Below, one piece after another: positions 3,363 through 56,674 of a DNA stretch of 64,000 nt (positions are counted from its first letter, which is position 1; every line of letters begins with the position of its first letter). Both the position numbers and the translations under genes were made by a program. Source of the DNA: Vicinamibacterales bacterium (lineage in GTDB: Bacteria > Acidobacteriota > Vicinamibacteria > Vicinamibacterales > 2-12-FULL-66-21); NCBI GenBank assembly GCA_038320555.1, contig JBBQEJ010000001.1:17222-81221 (forward strand). The letters are read 5' to 3'. The notes under the pieces were generated by a model, which was not told the DNA's origin, did no database searches, and worked only from the letters and a program-made list of their open reading frames with translations.

Positions 3363-3418
3363 GTTCGCGGCTCGCGGCTCCTGGTTCGCGGCTCGTGGTC
3401 CCCGCTCGCGGCTCGGCC
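3363..3418. repeat. phased heptamer array (GYTCGYG units) in the dxr-rseP spacer
   Basis: GTTCGCG GCTCGCG GCTCCTG GTTCGCG GCTCGTG read directly from the sequence, inside an operon. Confidence 0.8.
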
Positions 3419-5468: not shown

Positions 5469-5574
5469 GTAATCAGGGCTAGCGGGTGGCGGCTAGCGGC
5501 TTGCGACTGGCGGTTGGCGGCTAGCGGCTGGCAGTTAGCGGCTGGCAGTTGGCGGCTAGCGGCCAGGCGTGGCG
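5469..5574. repeat. intergenic repeat array with three copies of GGCGGCTAGCGGC plus CTGGCAGTT units
   Basis: The 13-mer sits at 5487, 5515 and 5550. Its reverse complement GCCGCTAGCCGCC recurs at 47856-47868 inside the BMC operon. Confidence 0.85.
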
Positions 5575-20591: not shown

Positions 20592-20621
20592 TAAAGAGTT
20601 CGGTTGATGATATCACACCGT

Positions 20622-20730
20622 TGCCAGTGGCCAGTTGCCGGTTGCCAGTTCCCAGTTGCCAGTTGCCAGTTGCCAGTTGCCAGTTGGCAGTTCCGGACTG
20701 AAAACTGAAAACTGGAAACTGGAAACTGAT
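20622..20730. repeat. phased heptamer arrays: GCCAGTT/CCAGTTG units, then CTGAAAA x2 and CTGGAAA x2
   Basis: Five perfect CCAGTTG units at about 20654-20688, flanked by variants, directly upstream of the pyrR leader. Confidence 0.9.
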
Positions 20731-30985: not shown

Positions 30986-33109
30986 CTACTCCTTCAATAG
31001 TCTGAGCGCATTCGCGATCACGATGAGCGACGCGCCCATGTCGGCGGCAACGGCCATCCACAGCGTGGCGGCGCCGGTGACGGCGAGGATCAGGAAGGCG
31101 CCCTTCAGGCCAATCGAGAAGGCGATGTTTCCGTGGATGTTGCGCGCGGTCGCGCGGCTCAGGCGCAGCGTGTAGGGAATCTTCGAGAGCTCATCGGCCA
31201 TGAGCGCCACGTCGGCGGTTTCGAGCGCCGCGTCGGTGCCGGCGACTCCCATCGCAATCCCCACATCGGCCGCGGCAAGGGCCGGCGCATCGTTCACGCC
31301 GTCGCCGACCATCGCGAGCGCGCCGTAGCGGGCGCGCAGCTCCTCGACAGCCGTGACTTTGTCTTCCGGTAACAACCCCGCGCGATGGCCGTCCAGATCC
31401 AGCGCCTCGGCCAGCGCCCGCGCCGGAGCTTCGTGATCCCCTGTCAGTAGGACCACGTGCTGAATGCCCTGCTTCCGGAGCAGGTCCACCGCATCGCGAG
31501 CGGCTTCGCGCGGTTCGTCGGCCACGCCAATCACGCCGACCGGCGTGCCTCCCGCCGCCACCATCACCGCGCTGGCTCCACGCGCCGCGAGCGTGTCGAG
31601 CGCGGCCTCCATCTCGGGCGAGCACAGCCCTCGCTCCTCGAACAACCGGTGACTGCCGACGACCAGGTTGTGTAATCCGAGTTGTGCCTCAGCGCCACGC
31701 CCCGGCAGCGCCTGGAACGCCTCGACCGCAACCGGCCGAATCCCGAGTGACGCCGCGTGCGAGACAATGGCGCGCCCGATCGGGTGTTCGGACCGCATTT
31801 CAAGCGATGCGGCAAACCGCAACACCTCTGCGGCCTCCACACCGGCGACGGGCAGCACGTCGATCACATGAAGCCGGCCGTGGGTGAGCGTCCCGGTCTT
31901 GTCGAACGCGACGCACCGGATCGTGGCCATCCTCTCGAGGTGCGCGCCGCCTTTGATGAGCACCCCTTTCCTCGCCGCGGCCGCGAGCGCCGACACGATC
32001 GACACGGGCGTCGAAATGACGAGGGCGCACGGACACGCGATCACGAGGAGCACGAGCGAGCGATAAAACCAGGTGGACCAGCTGGCATCGGTCAGGAGCG
32101 GGGCAGCCAGCGCGATGACGACTGCCAGCGCCAGCACGACCGGTGTGTAGATGCGCGCGAACCGATCGACGAACGCCTGGCTGGGCGCGCGCTGGGTCTG
32201 CGCGCGCTCCACGAGATGAATAATCCGCGCGAGCGTGGAATCGCGACGGAGCCGCGTGACAAGAACGTCGAGCGCGCCCCGGCCGTTGATGGTTCCGGCA
32301 AAGACTTCATCGCCCGGACCCTTCTCGATCGGCAGCGACTCGCCGGTCACGGGGGCCTGGTTCACGTAGCTGTCGCCCGCCGTCACGCGGCCGTCGAGCG
32401 GCAGCTTCTCGCCGGGACGCACGAGGATCGTGTCCCCGATCAGCACGTCGTCCACCGGGACGCGCGTGTCATGGCCATCGCGCCGGACGATCGCCTCGGA
32501 CGGCGCCAGATCCATGAGGGCGCTGATGGCGCCGCGCGCCCGATCCATCGCGCGCGCTTCCAGCAGCTGCGCGAGCGCAAACAGAAAGACGACCGACGCC
32601 GCCTCGGACCATTCACCGAGCAACATGGCGCCGCCGACGGCAATCACCATGAGCGCATTGATGTCGAGGATGCCGGAGCGGATCGAGACCAGCGCGCGGC
32701 GAGCGGTGAACACGCCGCCCAGGGTGATCGACAGCACGAAGGGAATCCAGGCGATCGAACCGGGCGCGCGCAGAAACGAACCGGCGAGGCCTGCCACAAA
32801 CGCCGCGCCCGACAGGACGAGCAGCCGCTGACGCGTGACGGCAGAGGCCGTGACCGGCGCGGGCTCCTCGTGCTCGAGCCATGCGCGCATCCCCGTTTGG
32901 GCGACCGCTTCCGCGATCGATCCCGCCGACAGCCTGGCTGCGTCGTACTTGATCCGAAGCCGCCGGCCAATAACGTCCGCATCGAGCGCTTCGAGCCCGG
33001 CCAGCCGGTTCAGGCGGTGCTCGAGGATCGCGACCTCCTCGTGACAGTCCATTCCCTCAATCTTGAAGGTTGATTCGGCGTGCAGCTCGCAGACCTGACA
33101 CGTGCTCAT
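30986..33109 (-). CDS. heavy-metal translocating P1B-type ATPase (Zn/Cd/Pb-like)
   Basis: N-terminal CQVC plus an HMA-like FKIEGMDCHEEV, CPC in TM6, DKTGTLT, GDGVNDAP, and ADMGAS (DxG) in the last TM. The ATG at 33109 makes an ATGA overlap with the arsR-like stop. Confidence 0.9.
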   Translation of the reverse strand: MSTCQVCELHAESTFKIEGMDCHEEVAILEHRLNRLAGLEALDADVIGRRLRIKYDAARLSAGSIAEAVAQTGMRAWLEHEEPAPVTASAVTRQRLLVLSGAAFVAGLAGSFLRAPGSIAWIPFVLSITLGGVFTARRALVSIRSGILDINALMVIAVGGAMLLGEWSEAASVVFLFALAQLLEARAMDRARGAISALMDLAPSEAIVRRDGHDTRVPVDDVLIGDTILVRPGEKLPLDGRVTAGDSYVNQAPVTGESLPIEKGPGDEVFAGTINGRGALDVLVTRLRRDSTLARIIHLVERAQTQRAPSQAFVDRFARIYTPVVLALAVVIALAAPLLTDASWSTWFYRSLVLLVIACPCALVISTPVSIVSALAAAARKGVLIKGGAHLERMATIRCVAFDKTGTLTHGRLHVIDVLPVAGVEAAEVLRFAASLEMRSEHPIGRAIVSHAASLGIRPVAVEAFQALPGRGAEAQLGLHNLVVGSHRLFEERGLCSPEMEAALDTLAARGASAVMVAAGGTPVGVIGVADEPREAARDAVDLLRKQGIQHVVLLTGDHEAPARALAEALDLDGHRAGLLPEDKVTAVEELRARYGALAMVGDGVNDAPALAAADVGIAMGVAGTDAALETADVALMADELSKIPYTLRLSRATARNIHGNIAFSIGLKGAFLILAVTGAATLWMAVAADMGASLIVIANALRLLKE

Positions 33110-33654
33110 CGCGGTTCGCGGTTCGCGATTCGCGGTTCGCGGTTCGTAGGTCCTGAATCGGGAGCTGACGCGTGTCGCGGTTCGCGATGTGCGGTTAGCC
33201 GCTCGCCCCTCGACGTTGCTCGGGGCGACCCTGAGCTTGTCGAAGGGTCGGGGACTGATGAGATGCGCGAATCGCCAATCGCGAATCGCGGCTCCTCCAC
33301 ATGGGTCAACGCCTGGTTGAGCAGCTCGAGAATGTGCTGATCGTCGACCGCGTAGTAGACCAGACGGCCCGCGCGGCGGGGGCGCACGAGACGCATGCCC
33401 CGCAGCAGCCGCAACTGGTGCGACGCCGCGGACTCGCTGATGCCGACGAGCGACGCGATGTCGCAGACGCAAAGCTCCCCTCCCGACAGCGCGTCGAGAA
33501 TCCGCACCCGTGTCGGATCTCCGAGGACGCGGAATGTCTCGGCAAGCGCTTCGACCGTACGCGCGCCCATCAGCAGGGGTTTTCGCGCCGCCGCCTGATG
33601 GGGACCCGCGCATTCGACGGTCGTGGTGGCGGGGCGTTCTTTGATTGTGGACAT
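33106..33654 (-). CDS. ArsR/SmtB-family metalloregulator with a repeat-encoded C-terminal tail
   Basis: LGDPTRVRILDAL...ELCVCDIASLVGISESAASHQLRLLR winged-helix core. There is no in-frame stop until 33106, so about 65 extra residues (ending NREPRIANREPR) are encoded by the repeat region. Confidence 0.75.
   Translation of the reverse strand: MSTIKERPATTTVECAGPHQAAARKPLLMGARTVEALAETFRVLGDPTRVRILDALSGGELCVCDIASLVGISESAASHQLRLLRGMRLVRPRRAGRLVYYAVDDQHILELLNQALTHVEEPRFAIGDSRISSVPDPSTSSGSPRATSRGERLTAHREPRHASAPDSGPTNREPRIANREPR
33110..33296. repeat. composite repeat region: GGTTCGC heptamers, an internal double hairpin, and inverted GAATCGC heptamers
   Basis: Heptamers run 33114-33162. Hairpins GCCCC(12)GGGGC and GACCCT(11)AGGGTC lie at 33205-33249. 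GAATCGC CAATCGC GAATCGC sits at 33269-33289, and CGCGATTCGCG (33124-33134) is the exact complement of 33280-33290. Confidence 0.85.
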
Positions 33655-45528: not shown

Positions 45529-46293
45529 CTACAGTGCCGCGTTACGGGCGCTCTTTTCAACCGCCACGTCAGCGGCGCTCTTTCCCACCCCCGCGCCACG
45601 AACGATCTTTCCCACCTTCGTGACGCCGATTCTCGGACAAACATCGGCGAGGACGCAAATTCCGCATAACGGGTACACCGGGCGGCACACGTTCTGTCCC
45701 CACGTCACGAGGTACAGATTGACGAGCGGCCACCATTTGCGGTGGACGGCCGCATACAGCGCGTGCTCGGTTTCATCGGGCGTGCGGGTCGCGACCCAGT
45801 CGAGGCGGTTGGAAATGCGGTGCACGTGCGTGTCGACGCAGATGTTATCCGCGCTGCGGTGCGCGAGAATCAGGACGAGGTTGGCGGTCTTGCGTCCGAC
45901 GCCAGGCAGCGTCAGCAGCTCCTCCATGGTCGCCGGCACGACGCCGCTGTAGCGCGACAGGATCTGCTCGCACGTGCGTTTCACGTGCACGGCTTTGTTC
46001 CGGTAGAAACTCACCGGATAGATCAGGCGCTCGATTGCTTTCACCCGCAGCGCCGCCATCGTGCGCGGCGTGCGTGCCACACGAAACAGCCGCGTAGATG
46101 CCGCGTGGGTGACAGCGTCCTTGGTCTGCGCCGACAGCATCGTCGCAATGAGGACCAGAAAGGGATCTTCCTGTTGATCCTCTGCGATTTTCTCGATCGC
46201 AGGTTCATCGAGCCCGTCGATCGCCTGCGCCAGCCGGCGCATCACCGCACGAATCCGTCCACGGGGAACGACCGGTTGCGGCGGGAGCGTCAT
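45529..46293 (-). CDS. nth: endonuclease III
   Basis: HhH motif LPGVGRKTANLVL, DTHVHRISNRL, and the Fe-S cluster CRPVYPLCGICVLADVC. ATGA overlap with the upstream dehydrogenase. Confidence 0.9.
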   Translation of the reverse strand: MTLPPQPVVPRGRIRAVMRRLAQAIDGLDEPAIEKIAEDQQEDPFLVLIATMLSAQTKDAVTHAASTRLFRVARTPRTMAALRVKAIERLIYPVSFYRNKAVHVKRTCEQILSRYSGVVPATMEELLTLPGVGRKTANLVLILAHRSADNICVDTHVHRISNRLDWVATRTPDETEHALYAAVHRKWWPLVNLYLVTWGQNVCRPVYPLCGICVLADVCPRIGVTKVGKIVRGAGVGKSAADVAVEKSARNAAL

Positions 46294-47210
46294 ACCGGGG
46301 TCAGCGGTGCCCTGCCCGACAGCACCTCAAGCACGTTTCTGACCGCAAGATCGGCCATCGCGGTCCGTGTTTCGCGTGTGGCGCTGCCGAGGTGCGGCGC
46401 AAGCACGACGTTGTCGAGCGTAAGGAGTCCTTGAGGGACGAACGGTTCCTTGTCGAAGACGTCGAGCGCGGCGCCCGCGATCATGTGCTCTTTCAGTGCC
46501 CAGACGAGCGCGTCTTCGTCGACGATCGAGCCCCGCGCGGTGTTCACGAGGAGCGCGGATCGTTTCATCCGCGCAAGCGTGCGGCGGCCGATCAGATGCC
46601 GGGTCTCCGGCGTGGCGGGCGTATGGATGGAAATCACGTCGGAGCTGACGAGCAGCTCGTCGAGCGACATGTCGTGCTTCGCAAAGACTGCCGTCATCCC
46701 GAACGCCGGCGCCTTTGCCGCCACCGCGCGACCGATCCGCCCCCGTCCGACAATACCCAGCTGCTTGCCACGAAGCTCCATCCCCAGCATGAAATCGAGC
46801 GCCCAACCCGTCCATCCGCCGCGGCGAATCAACCGATCGCCTTCCGCAATCCGCCTGGCGAGCGTGAGAATCAAGCCCCAGGTCAGCTCGGCCGTCGCCT
46901 CGGTCAGGACGTTGGGCGTGTTGGTCACCACTACGCCGCGCGTCTTGACGGCCGGCACGTCGATGTTGTCGTAGCCCACGGCAATGTTCGCGACGATCTT
47001 GAGCCCCGGCAGGCCCGCGTCCACCACAGCGCTGTCGATCCGATCCGTCAGGAGACAGATCAGTCCTTCCTTCCCCGCGATCCGTTCTTTCAGTTCCTCG
47101 ACCGAGAGCGGAGTCGGACCGTCGTGCAGATCGACATCGCAGGCCGATTCGAGGCGTGCAAATGCAGCGGACGGGATTCGGCGGGTCAGAAGAACGGAGG
47201 GTTTTTTCAC
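46290..47210 (-). CDS. D-isomer-specific 2-hydroxyacid dehydrogenase (glyoxylate/hydroxypyruvate reductase-like)
   Basis: GIVGRGRIGRAVA NAD motif, NTARGSIVDE and APHLGSAT. Confidence 0.85.
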   Translation of the reverse strand: MKKPSVLLTRRIPSAAFARLESACDVDLHDGPTPLSVEELKERIAGKEGLICLLTDRIDSAVVDAGLPGLKIVANIAVGYDNIDVPAVKTRGVVVTNTPNVLTEATAELTWGLILTLARRIAEGDRLIRRGGWTGWALDFMLGMELRGKQLGIVGRGRIGRAVAAKAPAFGMTAVFAKHDMSLDELLVSSDVISIHTPATPETRHLIGRRTLARMKRSALLVNTARGSIVDEDALVWALKEHMIAGAALDVFDKEPFVPQGLLTLDNVVLAPHLGSATRETRTAMADLAVRNVLEVLSGRAPLTPV

Positions 47211-47216
47211 AGCCTT

Positions 47217-47331
<115 letters not shown>

Positions 47332-47335
<4 letters not shown>

Positions 47336-47538
47336 TGTCCGTGCGATTCGCAGTAGCCGCAGTGATTGCACAGCACGTTGGGCTCGATCACGCAGGGACC
47401 GCCCGACGGCGGCAGCGCGTAGCGATAGTGGCTGGCGTGCTGCACGAGCACGGCAGGAACCTCGACCGTTTCCTCGCTTCCTGCCAGACGCCTGGCCACG
47501 GCCTCCCGTACCATCTGGCGCAGCATCTCCTCGTTCAT
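47332..47538 (-). CDS. 68-aa Cys-rich protein with an encapsulation-peptide-like N-terminus (BMC-associated)
   Basis: MNEEMLRQMVREAVARRLAG is an amphipathic helix. The C-terminus is C-x7-C-x2-C-x2-C-ESHGH. ATGA overlap with the upstream BMC-P gene. Confidence 0.55.
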
Positions 47539-47813
47539 ACGTCGTCCTTGTAATCGACCACGTCGACAATGCCGATCACCGCCGCGTCCACCGCCGCCGC
47601 CTTGCGTCCGAGCGCGTCGCCGGCTGCCTTCCCTTCGATGACGACCAGCACGCGCTCATCAACACCGGCTCCCACGGAGTCGATCGCGATCAACGCCACG
47701 CCGCGCGGCGTGCCCTCGAGCGTCAGCGGCTGCACGAGGAGCAGCTTCGCACCTTCGAGCTTCCGGTTCTTCTGTGTCGACACGACCGTGCCCACGACGC
47801 GACAAATCTGCAT
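47535..47813 (-). CDS. BMC vertex protein (BMC-P, EutN/CcmL family), paralog 3
   Basis: MQICRVVGTVVSTQK...AIDSVGAGVDERVLV...DAAVIGIVD is the canonical EutN pattern. Confidence 0.85.
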   Translation of the reverse strand: MQICRVVGTVVSTQKNRKLEGAKLLLVQPLTLEGTPRGVALIAIDSVGAGVDERVLVVIEGKAAGDALGRKAAAVDAAVIGIVDVVDYKDDV

Positions 47814-47887
47814 GCTTCAGTTGCCAGGTTCCAGTTACCGGTTTCCAGTTTTCCAGCCGCTAGCCGCCAGCCGCCAGCCGCTTTAGA
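47814..47887. repeat. CCAGTT-type units plus GCCGCTAGCCGCC in a BMC intra-operon spacer
   Basis: TTGCCAGGTTCCAGTTACCGGTTTCCAGTTTTCCAGCCGCTAGCCGCCAGCCGCCAGCCGC combines the motif families seen at 20622-20696 and 5487-5562. Confidence 0.85.
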
Positions 47888-48184
47888 TCAGCGACGGATT
47901 GGAAAATCGAGATCTGACCCCGCCAGATTCCAGTGATCGACGATCCCGACGATCGCGGCGTCGACTGGAGGCTCGGCGGGATAGAACGGAAACGCAGCCT
48001 CGCGGCCGCGAACGAAGAACACATGCTCGCCGGCGCCGGCGCCGACCGAGTCGACCGCCACGAGCGTGCGCCCTGCGCGCTCGCCGGTCGCGGCAATCGG
48101 CTGAAGCACGAGCAGCTTGGTGCTGACAAGGTTCACGTCCTTCACGCTCGCGACTACCTCGCCAATTACCCGGGCCAGCTGCAT
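47888..48184 (-). CDS. BMC vertex protein (BMC-P, EutN/CcmL family), paralog 2
   Basis: MQLARVIGEVVASVK...AVDSVGAGAGEHVF...DAAIVGIVD. Confidence 0.85.
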   Translation of the reverse strand: MQLARVIGEVVASVKDVNLVSTKLLVLQPIAATGERAGRTLVAVDSVGAGAGEHVFFVRGREAAFPFYPAEPPVDAAIVGIVDHWNLAGSDLDFPIRR

Positions 48185-48185
48185 G

Positions 48186-48464
48186 TCAGGAGTCGCCTTC
48201 CTTCACCTGGATCGTATCGACGATGCCGACGATGGCCGCATCGACCGGGCAGTCTTTCATGCCCGCCGCCATGCGGGCCGAGCTGCCGCTCACGATGAGC
48301 ACCGTCTCCCCGAAGCCGGCGTCCACCGTATCGACCGCGACCAGGTACGTCCCCTCCGGCTTGCCGTAGGGATCGACCGGACGCGCGATGAGCAGCTTGT
48401 TGCTGACGAGCCGCTCGTCCTTTCGCGTCGCGACGACAGTCCCCACGATCTTGGCGACGATCAT
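48186..48464 (-). CDS. BMC vertex protein (BMC-P, EutN/CcmL family), paralog 1
   Basis: [15 protein letters not shown]...[15 protein letters not shown]...DAAIVGIVD. Confidence 0.85.
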
Positions 48465-48754
48465 TTCGTGGTGGCGTTCGCCTTACCGATCGGGAGCGCG
48501 TCTTCGAGGTTGGCGTGCGGGCGCGGAATCACGTGCACCGACACCAGCTCGCCCACACGCCGTGCGGCGGCCGCCCCGGCGTCGGTCGCGGCCTTCACCG
48601 CGGCCACGTCGCCGCGCACGATCGCCGTCACGTACCCGGCGCCAATTTTTTCCCAGCCAACCAGCGTGACCTTCGCGGCCTTGACCATCGCGTCGGCCGC
48701 CTCGATCATCGCGACGAGACCCTTAGTCTCGACCATGCCGAGCGCCTCACCCAT
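48461..48754 (-). CDS. BMC shell hexamer protein (BMC-H, PduA/EutM-like)
   Basis: [27 protein letters not shown]...[11 protein letters not shown]...VHVIPRPH. Confidence 0.9.
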
Positions 48755-48831
48755 GCGTTGCCTCCTGCGCTTTCAGCTACCAGCTACCAGCCGCGAGCCG
48801 CCAGGGCTCTCTGCTAGCCGACAGCCGCTGA
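48755..48831. repeat. CAGCTAC/CAGCCGC-type repeat units in the aldolase to BMC-H spacer
   Basis: CAGCTACCAGCTACCAGCCGCGAGCCGCCAGGGCTCTCTGCTAGCCGACAGCCGCTG. Confidence 0.7.
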
Positions 48832-49686
48832 CTATTTCAGATGTTTGACCGCTTCCTCTATTAATGCCGTGAGCTCGCGGTATGTTAGCCGAATTTCGTC
48901 ATCCGCACCTATGGGACTCATCCGCCCGGGAACGAGGCGCTCGCCGCCGGCGGAAGGAGGCGCGAACAGGACCTGACAGTCCTCCGACGCACTCTCGGAC
49001 GCCGCAACGGGATCGGAGCAGATCGGCGCCGGCGCGGCGATGCCGTACCGGCCCCTGAGTCCCTGCAGGCGCATGACTTCGTCGCGTGAGAGCAACCGCT
49101 CGCCACCGAGCATCCGGGCGACAAAGCTGATGTTCGCGAAGTGCTCGATCGTCTCCATCTTGTAATACGCGGAGAACAAATCGGCGCCGAGCGTCAGCGC
49201 GCCGTGATTCGCGAGCAGCATGCCGTCGTGCGCCTTGACGTATTTGCGCACGGCCTCGGGCAGCTCCTTCGTTGACGGCGTGGCGTACTCCGCGATCGGC
49301 ACGCTCCCGAGCGTGGTCACGACTTCGGCAAGCACGGCACGATCGAGCGGGATTCCGGCAACCGCGAAGGCCGTCGCTACGGGCGGATGGGCGTGAACCA
49401 CCGCCTGAATCTCCGGGCGCTGTCGGTACACCTCGAGATGCATCTGCATCTCCGACGACGGGTTCCGCTCGCCGGCGAGCTTCCTGCCCTCGAGATCGGT
49501 AATGACCATCATCTGCTCGTTCATGAACCCTTTGCAGACGTTTGTGGGGGTCATGAGGAGCCGCTCGGCATCGAGCCGGACGCTGATATTGCCGTCGTTC
49601 GATGCCGTGTACCCGCGTGCGTACAGACGTCGGCCGACTTCGACGATATCGGTCCGGAGCTGGGATTCGAGGGGTGCCATCGCCAT
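48832..49686 (-). CDS. class II aldolase (fuculose/rhamnulose-phosphate aldolase-like) with a C-terminal extension
   Basis: SNDGNISVR, VVHAHPPVATAF and LANHGALTLG motifs. A low-complexity linker of about 60 aa ends in the amphipathic helix LTYRELTALIEEAVKHLK. Confidence 0.85.
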   Translation of the reverse strand: MAMAPLESQLRTDIVEVGRRLYARGYTASNDGNISVRLDAERLLMTPTNVCKGFMNEQMMVITDLEGRKLAGERNPSSEMQMHLEVYRQRPEIQAVVHAHPPVATAFAVAGIPLDRAVLAEVVTTLGSVPIAEYATPSTKELPEAVRKYVKAHDGMLLANHGALTLGADLFSAYYKMETIEHFANISFVARMLGGERLLSRDEVMRLQGLRGRYGIAAPAPICSDPVAASESASEDCQVLFAPPSAGGERLVPGRMSPIGADDEIRLTYRELTALIEEAVKHLK

Positions 49687-49828
49687 GTCTATGGAGAGAC
49701 GAAGATAACGGTTTTAACAACGAAGCAACGAAGTAATGGAGAAAAAACAAGATTGCTTTGGTTTTCTTCGTTCTTTCTCCGTTTACTTCGTTCCTTCGTT
49801 GTGAACCTCGTTCCCTTCGTCCCCTCCG
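49687..49828. repeat. CTTCGTT-family inverted-repeat element, copy A
   Basis: AACAACGAAGCAACGAAGTAATGGAGAAA ... TTTCTCCGTTTACTTCGTTCCTTCGTTGTGAAC are near-complementary arms of about 30 nt. CTTCGTTGTGAAC sits at 49794-49806. Confidence 0.85.
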
Positions 49829-50077
49829 TTATTTCCCGGACCATTCTCTCCTGCACTTCTCGGAACAAAAATGACGGGTCGCCGAACCCGTTCCGCTTGT
49901 CAGCGCCTGGCCGGGCACGACGAAGACCCCGCACACAGGATCGCGGACCAGGCCGACGCTGCGCTGGACCGATGGGTCGCGCGTGTAGCCCGCCCCCTCG
50001 ATCACACCACGCAGCAGCCGCGCCAGCGATCGCGCGAACAGAACAATCAGGACGGCCCAGAGGATCAGCTTCGCCAT
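49829..50077 (-). CDS. small membrane-anchored protein with a Cys-rich zinc-ribbon-like C-terminus
   Basis: MAKLILWAVLIVLFARSL anchor, then DPVCGVFVVPGQAL...HFCSEKCRREW. The family name (PP0621-like) is from memory only. Confidence 0.5.
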   Translation of the reverse strand: MAKLILWAVLIVLFARSLARLLRGVIEGAGYTRDPSVQRSVGLVRDPVCGVFVVPGQALTSGTGSATRHFCSEKCRREWSGK

Positions 50078-50087
50078 GCGACTCAGG

Positions 50088-50702
50088 CTAGCCCGGGGAT
50101 TTCGGTGTTTCGGCCGCGCCACCCCTGCCGTGGCCCGCACGAAGGCCGTCGAGCCCCTTCTTTGCGACCGCCGCTTCCGGACTGTCCGGCGCCACGTCGA
50201 GGACGCGCTGCCACGCCTGCTCCGCTCCGTCCAGATCCTGCTTCGCGAATGCCCGGACGATGCCGATGTTGAGGAGCGTCTTCGAATGCTTCGGATCGAT
50301 CGAAAGCGATTTGTCGAATTGCGCAAGTGCGCGATCGGGTTGATTCGAATAGTAGTACGCAATGCCGAGATCGGTGCTGGCGTTGACGTTCCTGGGATCG
50401 ACCTTCAGCGCTTCTTCGTACCAGTGCCTCGCGTCGTCGTATCGCTCCGCGTCGAAGTACAGGTTTCCAAGCTGCACCCGAGTCTCCGTGTCGGACGGAT
50501 TGCGCTCGGCGGAGGCCTTCAACGCGGTCGCGCGCGACTGATCGAAGGGTGGTTGCGCCTGTGCCGAGGGGACAGCGGCAGCCGGCGCGGATGCAGCCGG
50601 CGGCGGCGCGACCCCGGTCGCCTGCTGGCTGCCAATGATCCAACCGACCAGCACGCCGAAGAAAATGCCGGCGACGCCGAACACAACAGAGTCTCTTCGC
50701 AT
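50088..50702 (-). CDS. membrane-anchored TPR-repeat protein
   Basis: N-terminal TM segment, a Pro/Ala linker, then TPR units (LGNLYFDAERYDDARHWYEEALKVDP...). Confidence 0.75.
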   Translation of the reverse strand: MRRDSVVFGVAGIFFGVLVGWIIGSQQATGVAPPPAASAPAAAVPSAQAQPPFDQSRATALKASAERNPSDTETRVQLGNLYFDAERYDDARHWYEEALKVDPRNVNASTDLGIAYYYSNQPDRALAQFDKSLSIDPKHSKTLLNIGIVRAFAKQDLDGAEQAWQRVLDVAPDSPEAAVAKKGLDGLRAGHGRGGAAETPKSPG

Positions 50703-50807
50703 TGATAGGGCTTCGAGCTCAGGGCTTGAGGCTAAACTTCGAGTCGTGACTCCGGCCTTGGCCCTAAGACCAACCCTGGACCTGAGCCGTGCAACCTGAG
50801 CCCTGGA
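50703..50807. repeat. GAGCTCAGGGCTTGAGG ... CCTGAGCCCTGG repeat element
   Basis: Shares CAGGGCT/GAGCCCTG units with the 9759-9835 element. Confidence 0.6.
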
Positions 50808-51587
50808 TCATAACAACGTCCGATGGAACCAGTCCACCAGGGTGCGTGCGAGATCCGGATCGTGCCCGAGCATGACCGTGCCATGACCGGCGCGGTTCAT
50901 CACGAGGACTTCGCGGGCGCCGCCGCCGGCTTTCTGAAGATTCCTGGCCGAGCGCAGGGCGTAAGGATCGTCGTCGCTCGCGATGATCAGCGCCGGGTGC
51001 GGGCCGTACTTTTTCATGGCGGCTTCGATGCGCAGGCCGCGGTAGTCGAGCGACGGCGACAGCAGGGCCAGGCTGGCGACGCCGGGATCGCCGGCCGCTT
51101 CGAGCACGGCGAGGTTCGCACCGATCGAAGCGCCCGCAATTCCCACGCGCGATTGCTGCACGTCGCCCCGCGACGCCAGGTATCGCCGGGCGGCGGCGAC
51201 GTCGCGGACGAGCGCGGAGTAATCGGGCGCTTCACCTTCCTGAAGACCACCTGACGATTCGCCGTGCCCGCGCAGATCGATCGCCAGCGCGCCAATGCCC
51301 TCGGCCGCGAGCCGGGTGGCCACGGAGTCCCAGTCGCGCCTGGACTTGTGGAGCATGTGCACGAGGATGACGGCCGGCGCGGATCGAGGCCCTGGTTCGT
51401 ACCACGTGGCAGCCAGCGAAATCCCGTCGTCGGTGCGAATGGTGACGCGCTGTGTCCCGGCGGCGGCCCCGGCAGCGGGAAGAATGGCGAACAACGTCAG
51501 CGCCACGGCGAGCGCACGGAGCGAATGGATCGGGTCGGCGTGCCGCCTGCGCGCGCATCGCGTTGTCGGGCCGGGCCCTACTTCCAT
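50808..51587 (-). CDS. secreted alpha/beta hydrolase
   Basis: VILVHMLHKSRRDW, DLRGHGES and the nucleophile elbow GASIGAN. Confidence 0.75.
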   Translation of the reverse strand: MEVGPGPTTRCARRRHADPIHSLRALAVALTLFAILPAAGAAAGTQRVTIRTDDGISLAATWYEPGPRSAPAVILVHMLHKSRRDWDSVATRLAAEGIGALAIDLRGHGESSGGLQEGEAPDYSALVRDVAAARRYLASRGDVQQSRVGIAGASIGANLAVLEAAGDPGVASLALLSPSLDYRGLRIEAAMKKYGPHPALIIASDDDPYALRSARNLQKAGGGAREVLVMNRAGHGTVMLGHDPDLARTLVDWFHRTLL

Positions 51588-52309
51588 AGCAAGACGACCA
51601 TATCCCGTACCGCGCGATCCATGCCGACCAGCGCGGCGCGCGCCACGATGCTGTGGCCGATGTTGAGCTCGACGATTTCGGTGATCGTGACAATGGGAAT
51701 CACGTTCGTGTAGTTCAGGCCATGACCGGCGAGAACCTCGAGGTCGTGGCGGGCAGCGAGGCGGGCGGCTTCAGCAAGTCGCACGAGCTCCGCATGACGG
51801 GCATCAGCCGGGGCGTCCGCGTATCGGCCTGTGTTGATCTCGACGGCATCGGCGCCCACCGCCTTGGCCTTGCGCACCTGATCCGCATCGGCGTCGAGGA
51901 AAATGCTGACGCGCACGGCAGCCTCGTGCATCTGACGGATGAAGTCCTTGACGGCGGCGGCCTGCAGCACCACGTCGAGCCCCCCTTCGGTCGTCAATTC
52001 CTGGGGGCGCTCCGGCACGAGCGTGACCTGATCCGGACGGATCTGCAGCGCCACGCGCGCCATGTCGGCGGTCACCGCCATCTCGACGTTCAGCTTCGTG
52101 GCGATCGTCTTTCGAAGAAGCTCGAGGTCGCGGTCCTTGATGTGACGGCGATCACTTCTCAGGTGGACGGTGATCCCCTGCGCGCCGGCCATTTCCGCGG
52201 CAATCGCGGCAGCCACCGGCTCGGGCTCGCGCGCCTTACGTGCTTCCCGCAGGGTGGCGATGTGATCGATGTTGACCGCTAAGCGCATCGGCTGACTTCT
52301 CTTCGACAT
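51578..52309 (-). CDS. pdxJ: pyridoxine 5'-phosphate synthase
   Basis: LAVNIDHIATLR, EPDPV-like, HLRSDRRHI and LNIGHSIV motifs. Confidence 0.9.
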   Translation of the reverse strand: MSKRSQPMRLAVNIDHIATLREARKAREPEPVAAAIAAEMAGAQGITVHLRSDRRHIKDRDLELLRKTIATKLNVEMAVTADMARVALQIRPDQVTLVPERPQELTTEGGLDVVLQAAAVKDFIRQMHEAAVRVSIFLDADADQVRKAKAVGADAVEINTGRYADAPADARHAELVRLAEAARLAARHDLEVLAGHGLNYTNVIPIVTITEIVELNIGHSIVARAALVGMDRAVRDMVVLLWK

Positions 52310-52327
52310 TCCCGTAAGGGAACCGCT

Positions 52328-53677
52328 TCATCCCAGGTGTTCGCGTACGGCGCCGGCAATTTCGGCCGCCCACGCCTGAATCTGCTGTTGATCCTTCCCC
52401 TCGATCATCACGCGCAGCAGCGGTTCGGTGCCGGAATAGCGGACGAGCAGGCGGCCCTCGCCTGCGAGGCGGCTTTCCACGCGCGCCATTGCGTCCGCGA
52501 TCGACGGCACGGCCGCCAGCTCCTGCTTTTCGCGGACGCGCACGTTCACGAGCACCTGCGGATACGTCACGAGCTCGGAGGCGAGATCCGCCAGCTCGCG
52601 CCCGCTTTCAACCATCACGCGCAGGACGCTGAGGGCCGTCACGATGCCATCCCCCGTGAACAGGTGCTCGGAGAAGATGATATGCCCCGATTGCTCGCCG
52701 CCGATCGAGAGGTCGCGCTTGATCATCTCCTCCATGACGTACTTGTCGCCGACCGCGCATCGAACGAGATCGATGCGGCTGTCGCGAAGGGCAATCTCGA
52801 GGCCGATGTTGCTCATGACGGTGGCGACGACGGCATTTCCCTTCAGCCGGCCGCCCTGCTTCCAATGGCGGGCGCACATGAGCAGGACCGCGTCGCCGTC
52901 GACCACGCCGCCGTCGGCGTCGACAAAAATCGCCCTGTCGCCGTCGCCATCGAAAGCCACCCCCATGCGGCAGCTCAGAGCACGAACCGCCCTGGCGATC
53001 TGTTCCGGGTGCGTGGACCCGGAGTCGAGGTTGATGTTGCGGCCGTCGGGCGTCGCGCTCAGCACGTGAAGATCGCATCCCAGCTCGCGAAACAGCCGCG
53101 GCGCGACAGTCGTGGTGGCGCCGTTGGCCGTGTCGATCGCGAGCCTGAACGGGCCGAGCCGCCCGGCGTCCGGCAGCGCCAGCCGCGCGTGCGCGATGTA
53201 CGCGTCGATGACGTCGGTCCGATCGACCGGCACGTCGGAGGCGCCGCCCACCGACCAGGTCCGGTCGGCGATGATCGTTTCCACCTCGCGCTCGAGCGTT
53301 TCCGTGAACTTCTCCCCCTTCCCCGAGAAGACCTTGATGCCGTTGTCCTCGTATGGATTGTGCGAGGCCGAGATCACCAGGCCGGCATCGAAGCCCATTG
53401 CGCGCGTCACATAAGCGATTGCCGGCGTCGGGATGACCCCGGCACTCGTGATCTCCGCGCCGGCTGAGTGCACACCGCGCGCGAGCTCGCGCTCGATCCA
53501 TTCGCCCGATTCGCGCGTGTCGCGCCCGACCACAAATCGCAGCGGCCGACCCGGGGTGGTCGACCCGCCCATCGCGCGTACCAGCGCGCCGCCGAGGCGC
53601 GCCACCGTCTCGTGGTCGAGCGGATAGTCTCCCGCCTTTCCGCGGACGCCGTCGGTGCCAAACAGTCGATGGGCCAT
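52328..53677 (-). CDS. glmM: phosphoglucosamine mutase
   Basis: LFGTDGVRG, ISASHNPYEDNGIK and GDGDR motifs. Confidence 0.95.
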   Translation of the reverse strand: MAHRLFGTDGVRGKAGDYPLDHETVARLGGALVRAMGGSTTPGRPLRFVVGRDTRESGEWIERELARGVHSAGAEITSAGVIPTPAIAYVTRAMGFDAGLVISASHNPYEDNGIKVFSGKGEKFTETLEREVETIIADRTWSVGGASDVPVDRTDVIDAYIAHARLALPDAGRLGPFRLAIDTANGATTTVAPRLFRELGCDLHVLSATPDGRNINLDSGSTHPEQIARAVRALSCRMGVAFDGDGDRAIFVDADGGVVDGDAVLLMCARHWKQGGRLKGNAVVATVMSNIGLEIALRDSRIDLVRCAVGDKYVMEEMIKRDLSIGGEQSGHIIFSEHLFTGDGIVTALSVLRVMVESGRELADLASELVTYPQVLVNVRVREKQELAAVPSIADAMARVESRLAGEGRLLVRYSGTEPLLRVMIEGKDQQQIQAWAAEIAGAVREHLG

Positions 53678-53705
53678 ATGAAGGAGCTGGGAACGACGCG
53701 GGAAT

Positions 53706-54617
53706 CTACTTGATCGTCACGTCGACGACGGCGGGATCGATGGCGCTGACGCCGAAGGCTTGCGACGGGTCCACCTGGACGCGAAGATTGTATCGGCCGG
53801 GACCGAGGCCGGCAAGGTCCACGAACGCGTCAATGGCCCCCGCGCGGAGATCGGCTAACGCCTCCCGACGGCCGCGCACGGTCACGCGGGTCAGCGTGGG
53901 GCGGATCTGCGCGCTCAGCCCGGCGCCAAGACCGCGCCAGCGCACCGGCACGCCGGAGAGATCGCGCTCGACGGGCGCGGGAAGAACCTCGACCGTGATC
54001 GTCGCGTTCTGAGCCTGGACCAGCCGCACCGCGGAATCGGTGATCCCGACCGTGACCACGTCGTGCACGCGGGCACGCGTGCCCGTCACCTCAACCGGCT
54101 CCGTCGTCGCGCCCGTCAGTTGCCTCAAGCGGCTCTCGGGGCCCGCGACGTCGACCGTCGGCGGATCGGACGTGACACGGCCGATCACAAAGCCCGGCGC
54201 CGGCTCGCCGTCGAGCGCCGGAACGATCGGGACCGTGCGCCTCCCGGACTTCTCAAGATCGAGCGCGAGCGTGCCGGGCACGACCTGCGCGACGTCGACG
54301 CCGTACGGCGCGCGGACTTCGTCACTGCGCAGATGGAACATGCGCGAACCCGGGCGCGCGCTGCCGAGGTCCAGTACCGCGACGATGTCACGGGGCTCGA
54401 GGCGTCCCAGAAGCGCCGACGACCCGCGCAGCCGCACATCAACCGCGGTCGGCGGATCGCCGACGATCTCGAGCGACGGCGGGATGTTCCGGAACTCGAG
54501 CGGCACGCGCATGCTCCGCTCCACGAGGTGGTCCCCCGCGACGATCAGCCAGACCAGCGTCGCCAGCGCGAACGCCATCAGCTTGAGCCCGATATGACGG
54601 AATGGGTGATAGCGCAT
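53706..54617 (-). CDS. cdaR: YbbR-domain protein (CdaR-like regulator of the diadenylate cyclase)
   Basis: N-terminal anchor plus repeated YbbR-like beta modules. Its position between cdaA and glmM supports the call. Confidence 0.75.
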   Translation of the reverse strand: MRYHPFRHIGLKLMAFALATLVWLIVAGDHLVERSMRVPLEFRNIPPSLEIVGDPPTAVDVRLRGSSALLGRLEPRDIVAVLDLGSARPGSRMFHLRSDEVRAPYGVDVAQVVPGTLALDLEKSGRRTVPIVPALDGEPAPGFVIGRVTSDPPTVDVAGPESRLRQLTGATTEPVEVTGTRARVHDVVTVGITDSAVRLVQAQNATITVEVLPAPVERDLSGVPVRWRGLGAGLSAQIRPTLTRVTVRGRREALADLRAGAIDAFVDLAGLGPGRYNLRVQVDPSQAFGVSAIDPAVVDVTIK

Positions 54618-54618
54618 C

Positions 54619-54653
54619 CAATCCCTATTCCCTAATCGAATCGCGAATCGCTA
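54619..54653. repeat. five phased heptamers in the cdaA-cdaR spacer
   Basis: CAATCCC TATTCCC TAATCGA ATCGCGA ATCGCTA is the reverse-complement flavour of the GATTCG/TTAGGGA units at 47294-47328. Confidence 0.75.
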
Positions 54654-55466
54654 CACATCGTAGGCCCTCGACCCGATGCGCCTGCTCGCCTTGCGCGTTG
54701 TGACGAGGGACCGCAAGCGGCTGCGGAGATCGTCGGGGCTCAAGCCCCGCTCGATGCGGCCGTCGATCGCCAGCGAGATCTGCCCGGTCTCCTCGGACAC
54801 GATGACCGCGACGGCGTCCCCCTCCTCCGTCAGGCCGATGGCGGCGCGATGCCGCGTGCCGAGCTCGCGGCTCACGCGCGGGTTCACGGTCAGCGGAAGG
54901 AAGCAGGCCGCCGCCGCGACCCGGTTCTCCTGCAGGATCACCGCACCGTCGTGCAGCGCCGATCCCCGGTGAAAGATCGTGACGAGCAGATCGTAAGTCA
55001 GCGTCGCATCGAGCGGAATCCCACTCTCGATGTAATTGCGCAGGCCAATCTCCCGCTCGACCGCCACAATCGCTCCCACCTTGTGCGCGGACAGCATCGT
55101 GGCGGCCACGACGATCTCTTCGATGGTTTCGTCGGCCGCTTCCTGCCTGTAGAAATAGCGGAAAAATGGCGCCTGGCCGAAATGCGCGAGGGCGCGACGG
55201 ATGTCCGACTGGAAGATCACGATTGCGGCAAACGCAACGTAGACAAGCATGTTGCGGATCAGCCAGTTCACGGTCTGCAGCGGAGCGAGCCGCGACACGT
55301 AGAACAGCGCGACGATGATGAGGGAACCGACGCCCATCTGGACAGCGCGCGTGCCCCTGATGAGCAGCAGGAACTCATAGATCAGGAAGGCGACGATCGC
55401 GATGTCGAGCAGATCCCACCAGCCCACCGGCGGCCGGCGCAGGACGCTGGCAAGATAGTCCATCAT
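54651..55466 (-). CDS. cdaA: diadenylate cyclase (membrane-bound, CdaA type)
   Basis: Three N-terminal TM segments, with HDGAVIL, LGTRHRAA and VSEETG DAC-domain motifs. Confidence 0.9.
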   Translation of the reverse strand: MMDYLASVLRRPPVGWWDLLDIAIVAFLIYEFLLLIRGTRAVQMGVGSLIIVALFYVSRLAPLQTVNWLIRNMLVYVAFAAIVIFQSDIRRALAHFGQAPFFRYFYRQEAADETIEEIVVAATMLSAHKVGAIVAVEREIGLRNYIESGIPLDATLTYDLLVTIFHRGSALHDGAVILQENRVAAAACFLPLTVNPRVSRELGTRHRAAIGLTEEGDAVAVIVSEETGQISLAIDGRIERGLSPDDLRSRLRSLVTTRKASRRIGSRAYDV

Positions 55467-55801
55467 GCAGGGATAGCTTATCTGATGGCAGCCTCAAAAG
55501 GCGGCGCGACAGAAAGGCCGGCGGCGGCGCTCTGAACGGCAGCTGACGTAGGGAAAACAAGTCCTGCGAGGACGCGTGGCGTGATAGGAAGCCGGAATAG
55601 GCCAACCGGGGGGAAACGGCGGATGCGGTACCACGTGATCCGGCCAGATCAAGAGCGACTGCTGAACCGTCAGGCCGGTGAGCTTGGCTGATTCATGTAC
55701 TCAGCCGCGGTCACGGCGACGGCTTTTGAGACACCGGCATCATAGGGACTGGTGTGCGACGCGCCTGGTGGGGAAACTGTTGCTACAGGCTGTGAACCCC
55801 G

Positions 55802-56674
55802 CTACATAACCCGTGGAGAAAACTCCTGCCTGATGCGATCGGCAACTCTGGCGACATCCACCATCTCAGCTACACGGTGGACCCGGACGATATGTGCGCC
55901 GAGCAGCACGCTGGCGGCTACCGCGGCAGCCGTCCCCCATTCCCGCCCGGCCGGCGGCCGGTCGCCAATCGCCGCACTGAGGAACGACTTGCGCGAGGGC
56001 CCGGCAAGGATCGGCCGATCGAGATGCGCAAGATCGCCGAGGTGTGCCAGTGCGGCGTACGAATGCGCCGCACGCTTCGCGAACCCGAGGCCCGGATCGA
56101 CGATGATCGCTTCCCGAGCAACACCCGCGGCGATCGCACGCGTGAGGGCGGCCCCCAGTTCCTCGGAAATCTCGGCGACAAGGTCGGAGTAGGCGGCTTC
56201 GCGGTACATCTCGCGCGAGCGCCCGCGGTTATGCATCAGCACGACCGCGGCCCCCGACTCCGCGACGACCGAACCCAAACCTGGATCGAACTGCAGGCCG
56301 CTGACGTCGTTGACGATGACGGCGCCGGCGGCCATCGCCTCGCGCGCCACGATCGCCTTGTAGGTATCGACGGACACGGGTACGCCGCTCGTGGCCAGTC
56401 GCTCGATGACCGGCAGGACGCGGCGGAGTTCTTCGTCCGCGGGCAACGGCTCGGCGCCCGGCCGCGTCGATTCTCCCCCGACGTCGAGGATGTCAGCCCC
56501 TTCCTCGACCATCCGCAGGCCATCCTCAATCGCACGGCCGGGATCGAGCCGCACGGCCCCGTCCGAGAAGGAGTCCGGCGTGATGTTGAGAATTCCCATG
56601 ACGAGGGTACGCTCGCCCAGCACAAGTGCCGCGCGATTCCTTAGCGGTACTTCGTAACGGGCTCGCGGGGTCAA
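55802..56674 (-). CDS. folP: dihydropteroate synthase
   Basis: VMGILNITPDSFSDG, DVGGESTRPG and VSVDT motifs. Confidence 0.9.
   Translation of the reverse strand: MTPRARYEVPLRNRAALVLGERTLVMGILNITPDSFSDGAVRLDPGRAIEDGLRMVEEGADILDVGGESTRPGAEPLPADEELRRVLPVIERLATSGVPVSVDTYKAIVAREAMAAGAVIVNDVSGLQFDPGLGSVVAESGAAVVLMHNRGRSREMYREAAYSDLVAEISEELGAALTRAIAAGVAREAIIVDPGLGFAKRAAHSYAALAHLGDLAHLDRPILAGPSRKSFLSAAIGDRPPAGREWGTAAAVAASVLLGAHIVRVHRVAEMVDVARVADRIRQEFSPRVM

Follow-up and report, generated by a model that had tools for sequence, protein, structure and literature searches.

Encapsulation peptides (EPs) of bacterial microcompartment (BMC) cargo are terminal helices of about 18 residues carried on poorly conserved linkers. 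PduD and PduP, for example, carry EPs at their N-termini. The known route of electrons across a BMC shell is PduT and PduS, a shell trimer and a flavoprotein. The ACI type of BMC locus was defined by Sutter et al. 2021 (PMC8217296; Nat Commun 12:3809, Supplementary Data 2). Acidobacteria, the bacteria in which ACI compartments are found, are abundant in soil. As the catalogue describes this type, it includes a very short protein with an N-terminal EP and conserved C-terminal cysteines, for which no function is given; the protein is put at about 80 aa with three conserved cysteines (PMC8217296). The same description remarks that metal binding may matter in the ACI type, places the aldehyde dehydrogenase (AldDh) on a satellite locus, and records pairs of PduS and PduT homologues as occasional on ACI satellite loci. 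Small Cys-rich domains on a flexible tether are also described there for the cargo of other types: the MIC3 AldDh bears a linker and a four-Cys domain of about 40 aa, MIC6 has a 4xCys extension, and MUF2 has an EP protein with six Cys (PMC8217296). An aldolase and a BMC-P triplet belong to these types too, according to the catalogue entries. Among the papers searched, none from after 2021 characterises ACI compartments or the small protein.

The window (the whole stretch of DNA analysed here, 64,000 nucleotides) contains an ACI-type BMC locus of Sutter et al. 2021. What it has in common with the catalogue's description of the type is an aldolase with a C-terminal EP, a BMC-H protein, a BMC-P triplet, a 2-hydroxyacid dehydrogenase and the small protein with EP and cysteines. 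The genes lie on the minus strand. The shell is encoded by one BMC-H hexamer gene (48461..48754) and three BMC-P (EutN/CcmL) genes (48186..48464, 47888..48184 and 47535..47813, in order of reading); in Pfam searches these appear as one PF00936 gene and three PF03319 genes, all consecutive. The small gene (47332..47538) follows the third BMC-P gene. Directly downstream of it is a D-isomer-specific 2-hydroxyacid dehydrogenase (46290..47210) which resembles glyoxylate/hydroxypyruvate reductases (PF00389/PF02826, E=3e-52 and 6.5e-31) and lacks a terminal extension. An endonuclease-III-like gene (Nth) lies beyond it. Heptanucleotide tandem repeats (e.g. GTTCGCG x11 and GTTGCCA x10) occupy many intergenic gaps, at 3365-3415, 5477-5563, 20620-20729, 33109-33146, 47217-47330, 47818-47881 and 48774-48791; the unit varies by site, and the gap separating the small ORF from the dehydrogenase gene holds one such array.

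The signature enzyme of the locus is a class II aldolase (48832..49686, minus strand; PF00596, Pfam E=3e-50). Its C-terminal EP, EIRLTYRELTALIEEAVKHLK, covers residues 264-284 (48835..48897, minus strand), and the C-terminal end, EIRLTYRELTALIEDAV-R-x-L-K, is conserved across 72 orthologues. Before the EP and its variable linker there is a C-terminal extension (residues 214-253) with two invariant cysteines, C223 and C237. The first lies in YGIxAPAPIC and is found in 99% of the 72 orthologues; the second lies in CQVVxAP...RLVP and is found in 100%. The ACI text of the catalogue, in the part that describes the locus, does not mention these tail cysteines (PMC8217296). Directly upstream of the aldolase gene is an ORF of 81 aa (49829..50074, minus strand) with one TM helix and with cysteines in a TRASH/YHS-like arrangement, C-x21-C-x3-C (RDPVCG-x19-FCSxxCR); the ORF is conserved in 72 loci. 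Its matches, to NCBIfam PP0621 and to Pfam DUF7576, are all below threshold, and a longer ORF called by chance (49829-50362) overlaps it.

The earlier note had described the locus as one with no NAD-recycling enzyme pair. This is overstated, since an NAD(P)-dependent 2-hydroxyacid dehydrogenase is directly downstream of the small gene and the AldDh is to be expected at another place in the genome. The scanned large ORFs of the window include no AldDh, which is consistent with the satellite-locus AldDh of the ACI type. PduT and PduS are present neither in the window nor in the conserved locus, which also has no gene for a flavoprotein or any other one-electron partner.

Homologues of the small protein are numerous. 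A word-based search recovers 170 of them, 59-83 aa in length, and when 1.84 billion representatives are searched in full with an HMM, 258 clusters at 50% identity are obtained. The best 150 of the 258 HMM matches are all 40-192 aa long; among these 150 (all at most 192 aa) there are no fusions of the C-terminal domain to an enzyme, AldDh especially. Two apparent fusions of a BMC-P protein to the small protein (P0147 and P0255) are frameshifted or merged gene calls over the 4-bp overlap of the two genes and not true fusions. At least 120 species-level genomes contain a match to IEPxVxCxHCG[YF]C, searched as a degenerate pattern in DNA, and each match among the loci listed falls at the C-terminal end of a small ORF of this family. 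Nearly all of these loci, at least 120 in number, come from MAGs of Vicinamibacterales/Acidobacteriota. A few MAGs labelled Acidimicrobiia or Bifidobacteriaceae (L014, L016, L031 and L064) have the same syntenic locus including the flanking Nth; these are probably binning or labelling errors and not transfers.

The neighbourhood of the gene is conserved. The order in the listed loci is TPR, the 81-aa TM/TRASH-like protein, aldolase, BMC-H, three BMC-P, the small ORF, usually the 2-hydroxyacid dehydrogenase, and Nth. The question whether homologues always sit beside BMC-P genes can be answered for the loci listed: the small gene comes directly after the BMC-P triplet in 120 of 120. The overlap of the start codon with the last BMC-P gene (ATGA), pointed out in the earlier note, is present in the window, and among the matches listed a 4-bp overlap recurs in 67 of 109 loci, with other short overlaps in 14 more. 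The small gene is translationally coupled to the BMC-P shell gene and this coupling is conserved. The 2-hydroxyacid dehydrogenase is directly downstream in 78 of the 90 evaluable loci among the matches listed and absent from that place in 12 (L007, L014, L015, L031, L046, L049, L054, L070, L076, L102, L103 and L112), several of which have Nth next; the small protein is therefore the more constant of the two. Synteny extends to housekeeping genes (Nth, PPIase, DUF72, PdxJ, GlmM-like mutase, CdaA/YbbR, FolP and FtsH; 45529-56674 of the window, and L001-L003). The ACI locus in this lineage looks vertically inherited, and adjacency alone is for this reason a weak guide to function.

The small gene (47332..47538, minus strand, stop included) encodes a protein of 68 aa, MNEEMLRQMVREAVARRLAGSEETVEVPAVLVQHASHYRYALPPSGGPCVIEPNVLCNHCGYCESHGH, followed by the stop. 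This translation is identical to the one proposed earlier, with Cys at 49, 57, 60 and 63; His residues are at 59, 66 and 68. The ATG (47538-47536) shares an ATGA with the TGA of the preceding EutN/CcmL BMC-P gene. A Shine-Dalgarno-like AAGGA (47545..47549, minus strand) is located 6 nt 5' of the ATG, within the 3' end of the BMC-P gene. No convincing promoter or terminator was found in a scan near the small gene. GC content by codon position (GC3 0.82, GC2 0.44) is like that of the adjoining genes. Comparison with 22 relatives gives pN/pS values of 0.27 for residues 1-19 (helix), 0.79 for residues 20-32 (linker) and 0.27 for residues 33-68 (C-terminal part), with synonymous sites close to saturation. 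By these values, two modules are constrained and the tether between them is nearly neutral. The small ORF is a real and strongly conserved gene, with purifying selection on the helix and on the C-terminal domain.

The N-terminal module consists of residues 2-19, NEEMLRQMVREAVARRLA (47482..47535, minus strand). Its consensus in the family is M[NT]E[DQ]ELRALVRDAIARHL, and R7 and R11 are conserved in at least 90% of 129 diverse sequences. With two alignments, AlphaFold2 (AF2) places a helix here, at residues 2-18 or at 3-19; block mean pLDDT is 79-94 for residues 1-20 and 87-94 for the helix at 3-19. The linker which follows (residues 20-32; 47443..47481, minus strand; pN/pS 0.79) is flexible; in relatives it is about 10-70 aa long, rich in P, A, G and S, and poorly conserved. 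When the N-terminal profile is compared with that of the aldolase C-terminal EP, residues 2-20 align with 7-25 (hhalign, P=2.9e-4). The terminal position, the confidently predicted helix, the variable linker and the profile match together support the identification of the helix as an EP of the aldolase-EP type, and targeting is predicted. The small protein is like other BMC cargo in having a terminal helix of about 18 residues on a poorly conserved linker. An encapsulation-type helix had been proposed for this N-terminus in the earlier note, and the catalogue's description of the ACI small protein agrees (Sutter et al. 2021). The helix had also been called amphipathic, a word that holds for it qualitatively at most. 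It does show the pattern h..hh..hh...h, but its Eisenberg hydrophobic moment is not above that of shuffled sequences (P=0.82 for a 17-mer; P=0.12 for the best 11-mer), whereas that of the aldolase EP is (P=0.005).

The C-terminal module is a mini-domain of residues 33-68 (47335..47442, minus strand). It has a HASH motif and then GPC-VIEP-x-V-x-C-N-H-C-G-Y-C-x-S-x-G-H at the end of the protein. The core of this cysteine knob in the family is G-x-C-[LVI]-I-E-P-x-V-x-C-x-H-C-G-[YF]-C-x-S-x-G-H, also C-terminal; the cysteine spacing is C-x7-C-x2-C-x2-C, followed by x4-H, where the protein ends. C49, C57, C60, C63 and G67 are invariant in 129 diverse sequences, and S36, I51, E52, P53, V55, G61 and H68 are conserved in at least 90% of them. 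I51, E52, P53, V55, H59, G61, S65 and H68 are each conserved in at least 93% of sequences, and in a wider set E52, H59 and the C-terminal H68 reach at least 95%. Among 349 distinct tails, H59 is found in 95%, G61 in 97%, S65 in 93%, and Y or F at position 62 in 100%; an HxSH motif upstream of the knob core is present in 74%. Two His had been counted along with the cysteines in the earlier note; the conserved pair is H59 and the C-terminal H68, while H66 is found in just 58%. A subgroup of about 4% has Cys in place of S65 (...C-[QEK]-C-H-G-H), which gives a fifth Cys near C63 (e.g. L016, L035, L036, L066, L081, L090, L106 and P0187). Lack of conservation of the ORF or its cysteines in orthologous loci had been named as grounds for giving up the proposal; the opposite is seen, with four invariant Cys in a large family.

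The structure of the protein alone was predicted by AF2. With close homologues only, the C-terminal domain is unreliable (pLDDT 55-68), and the model from the diverse alignment of 129 sequences was used instead. Its mean pLDDT is 83.5. Besides the helix at 3-19 there is a short one at 29-32, and the C-terminal part consists mostly of loops (block mean pLDDT 81-89), with a single beta-bridge beside C49 and C57. Foldseek found no structural analogue of this model in the PDB. Pfam and NCBIfam searches with the small protein, and Pfam searches with 129 members at E<=10, gave no significant family. Models of the Fer4 type (Fer4, Fer4_2 and Fer4_4) are touched by 6 of the 129 members in the per-member Pfam searches at E<=10, with E values of 0.13-0.55. 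The PDB was also searched with a profile of the whole protein and with one of the knob only, at E<=10. Both match nothing but the structural-zinc lobes of two medium-chain dehydrogenases, 5vm2 (E=0.0084) and 1e3j (E=0.03), except for a third match at E=4.1, the zinc-binding protein Trm112. No Fe-S protein is among the PDB sequence matches at this threshold.

CxxCG[YF] is the classical zinc or rubredoxin knuckle, and the C-x2-C-x2-C-x7-C of alcohol dehydrogenases (ADHs) binds one Zn. CxxCxxC with a remote Cys is able to hold a cubane. In the PDB alignments, IEPxVxCxHCxYC is matched to IEPGVPCGHCRYC in 5vm2 and to VEPGVPCRRCQFC in 1e3j, both polyol-type enzymes of the MDR family, so that C57, C60 and C63 coincide with cysteines 96, 99 and 102, the first three of the ADH lobe. 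The aligned segment is only 13-14 residues long, at the borderline values of E=0.008-0.03. The small protein has no ADH domain and its context is not that of a dehydrogenase; the fourth Cys of the lobe is 7 residues downstream, whereas the extra Cys of the small protein is 7 residues upstream. It is the site that is alike, which does not make the small protein a member of the family, and the likeness may be convergent. Candidates for the fourth ligand of the knob are the upstream C49 and the C-terminal H68. Where rubredoxins and zinc ribbons hold one metal between two CxxC knuckles, the small protein has one knuckle, the rubredoxin-like CxxCG[YF] (C57-C60); there is no second CxxC, C49 and C63 being single, and no family match.

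The possible mini-ferredoxin of the earlier note is not supported by these results. The CxxCxxC run is common to the small protein and to 4Fe-4S ferredoxins (Fer4), but the small protein has no downstream fourth Cys, no CP and no fold match. There is no significant family match, no CxxCxxCxxxCP, no ferredoxin-like secondary structure in the AF2 model, and no Foldseek match; the PDB likeness is only to a Zn(Cys)4 site. The other part of the proposal, that the protein is a metal-binding cargo of the lumen and too small for an enzyme, is reasonable, since the Cys motif is invariant across the family. Zn, Fe and Fe-S are indistinguishable from sequence, which leans to a mononuclear tetrathiolate. 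A mononuclear site is favoured by the C57-x2-C60-G-[YF] knuckle and by the alignment of IEPxVxCxHCxYC with the Zn(Cys)4 lobe of ADHs; that the site would be mononuclear rather than a cubane has an even chance or a little better. Zn would be the most likely metal, with a rubredoxin-like Fe possible and a ferredoxin-type cubane less likely.

It should be noted that the small protein with EP and cysteines is already known as a catalogued feature. The 2021 catalogue records it, and the observation in the earlier note is for this reason a rediscovery and not new. The catalogue, in its description of the type, has three cysteines and about 80 aa; the protein here has four cysteines, invariant in 129 sequences, and 68 aa. 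What is new here is the set of four invariant cysteines, the conservation of E52, H59 and H68 at 95% or above, the match of the helix to the aldolase EP, the absence of a ferredoxin family, and the likeness to the zinc lobe of ADHs.

It is very probable that the small protein is an EP-targeted, metal-binding protein of the lumen. The more specific reading preferred here, a lumen-targeted and tethered Cys4 knob which holds one metal ion and acts as an adaptor, has about an even chance of being correct. The helix would bring the protein to the cargo core or to the lumenal face of the shell, as the aldolase EP does. The knob would fold around a single metal ion held by four thiolates. On its tether it would then be a small binding or organising module, that is, an adaptor, for another component of the core. 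Coupling to the gene of the vertex protein (BMC-P) would hold the amount of small protein low and fixed. Candidate partners of the adaptor are the Cys-bearing tail of the aldolase and the satellite AldDh. The C223/C237 tail of the aldolase is a possible partner, or a possible second metal or thiol site, for the Cys4 knob. The 2-hydroxyacid dehydrogenase was also considered as partner; this is weakened by the 12 of 90 listed loci that keep the small gene with no such dehydrogenase adjacent.

The retention of the gene in those same 12 of 90 listed loci supports an adaptor, as does the recurrence of tethered Cys-rich mini-domains on the cargo of other types in the catalogue's descriptions (MIC3 AldDh, MIC6 and MUF2). 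In MIC3, by the catalogue's description, the domain is part of an enzyme; the small-protein family, in contrast, shows no enzyme fusion among the best 150 of 258 HMM matches. Against the preferred reading, the knob is conserved almost completely (E52, H59, S65 and H68 included), beyond what a Zn site with a purely structural role would require; such conservation would suit a redox or catalytic centre as well. The brevity of the match to the ADH lobe, the hydrophobic moment of the helix and the lack of a Foldseek analogue also count against it. The adaptor role itself is held tentatively, at somewhat less than an even chance.

The alternative which survives best is a lumenal electron carrier, a wider form of the idea in the earlier note, in which a [4Fe-4S] cluster or a rubredoxin-type Fe would shuttle single electrons, e.g. 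to conduits of the PduS/PduT type. It is an unlikely reading. The chemistry allows it: CxxCxxC with the remote Cys can ligate a cubane, CxxCG[YF] is a rubredoxin knuckle as well as a zinc one, and the extreme conservation of the knob takes in a His and a Glu near the cysteines. A few members brush Fer4 models (E 0.13-0.55), and the catalogue, where it treats the ACI type, has both the occasional PduS/PduT pairs on satellite loci and the remark on metal binding (Sutter et al. 2021). However, there is no significant match to an Fe-S family and no Fe-S protein from the PDB at E<=10, there is no CP after the fourth Cys, and the model has no ferredoxin fold. The enzymes of the locus (the aldolase, the 2-hydroxyacid dehydrogenase and the satellite AldDh) are dependent on metal or NAD(P) and use no one-electron carriers, and the conserved locus has no flavoprotein partner. 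PduS and PduT are occasional, whereas the small protein is constant.

A metal chaperone or buffer is less probable still. Here the knob would hold Zn, or some other metal, on behalf of the encapsulated aldolase, with the TRASH-domain membrane protein as a possible supplier. Class II aldolases (PF00596) are metal-dependent, the TM and TRASH-like protein is conserved directly upstream of the aldolase, and the aldolase tail has its two invariant cysteines; the remark on metal binding in the catalogue's ACI description would also fit. But a Cys4 site holds Zn too tightly to be a good donor unless it is oxidised, and the small protein has no likeness to known metallochaperones. In addition, the catalogue's descriptions of other aldolase-containing BMC types report no such protein.

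A third possibility, that the protein is the precursor of a ribosomally synthesised peptide or cofactor, with a leader helix and a hyperconserved Cys-rich core, is highly improbable. The layout of leader, linker and core with an invariant C-terminus is superficially like that of precursors such as MftA or SCIFF. The conserved neighbourhood, however, has no maturase (radical SAM, cyclodehydratase or Lan-type enzyme), no peptidase and no exporter; the sole radical SAM gene nearby pairs with QueC. The supposed leader is homologous to the aldolase EP, and translation of the gene is coupled to that of a shell gene. Finally, a spurious ORF, such as the many of similar size that overlap real genes by chance in this window of 65% GC, is already refuted by conservation: hundreds of homologues share the invariant residues, codon-position GC is like that of real genes, pN/pS is 0.27 in two modules, and both the Shine-Dalgarno sequence and the overlap are conserved.

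Few non-shell parts of the main ACI locus are as constant as the small protein, which in this exceeds the dehydrogenase. It would also be a compact natural module of EP, linker and metal knob, which could be reused to target metal sites to engineered shells. Less probably, it is an EP-targeted, iron-based carrier of the lumen (rubredoxin-type Fe or small Fe-S), or a novel cargo-docking domain shared with the four-Cys domain of the MIC3 AldDh; the two taken together are an unlikely prospect. If the knob does hold iron, it would be the first dedicated soluble one-electron carrier that is EP-targeted to a microcompartment lumen, and the ACI compartment would have an internal redox relay independent of the usual NAD+/NADH enzyme pair. 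The identity of the metal, Zn or Fe, and that of the knob's binding partner would show how the ACI compartment organises or redox-balances its core.
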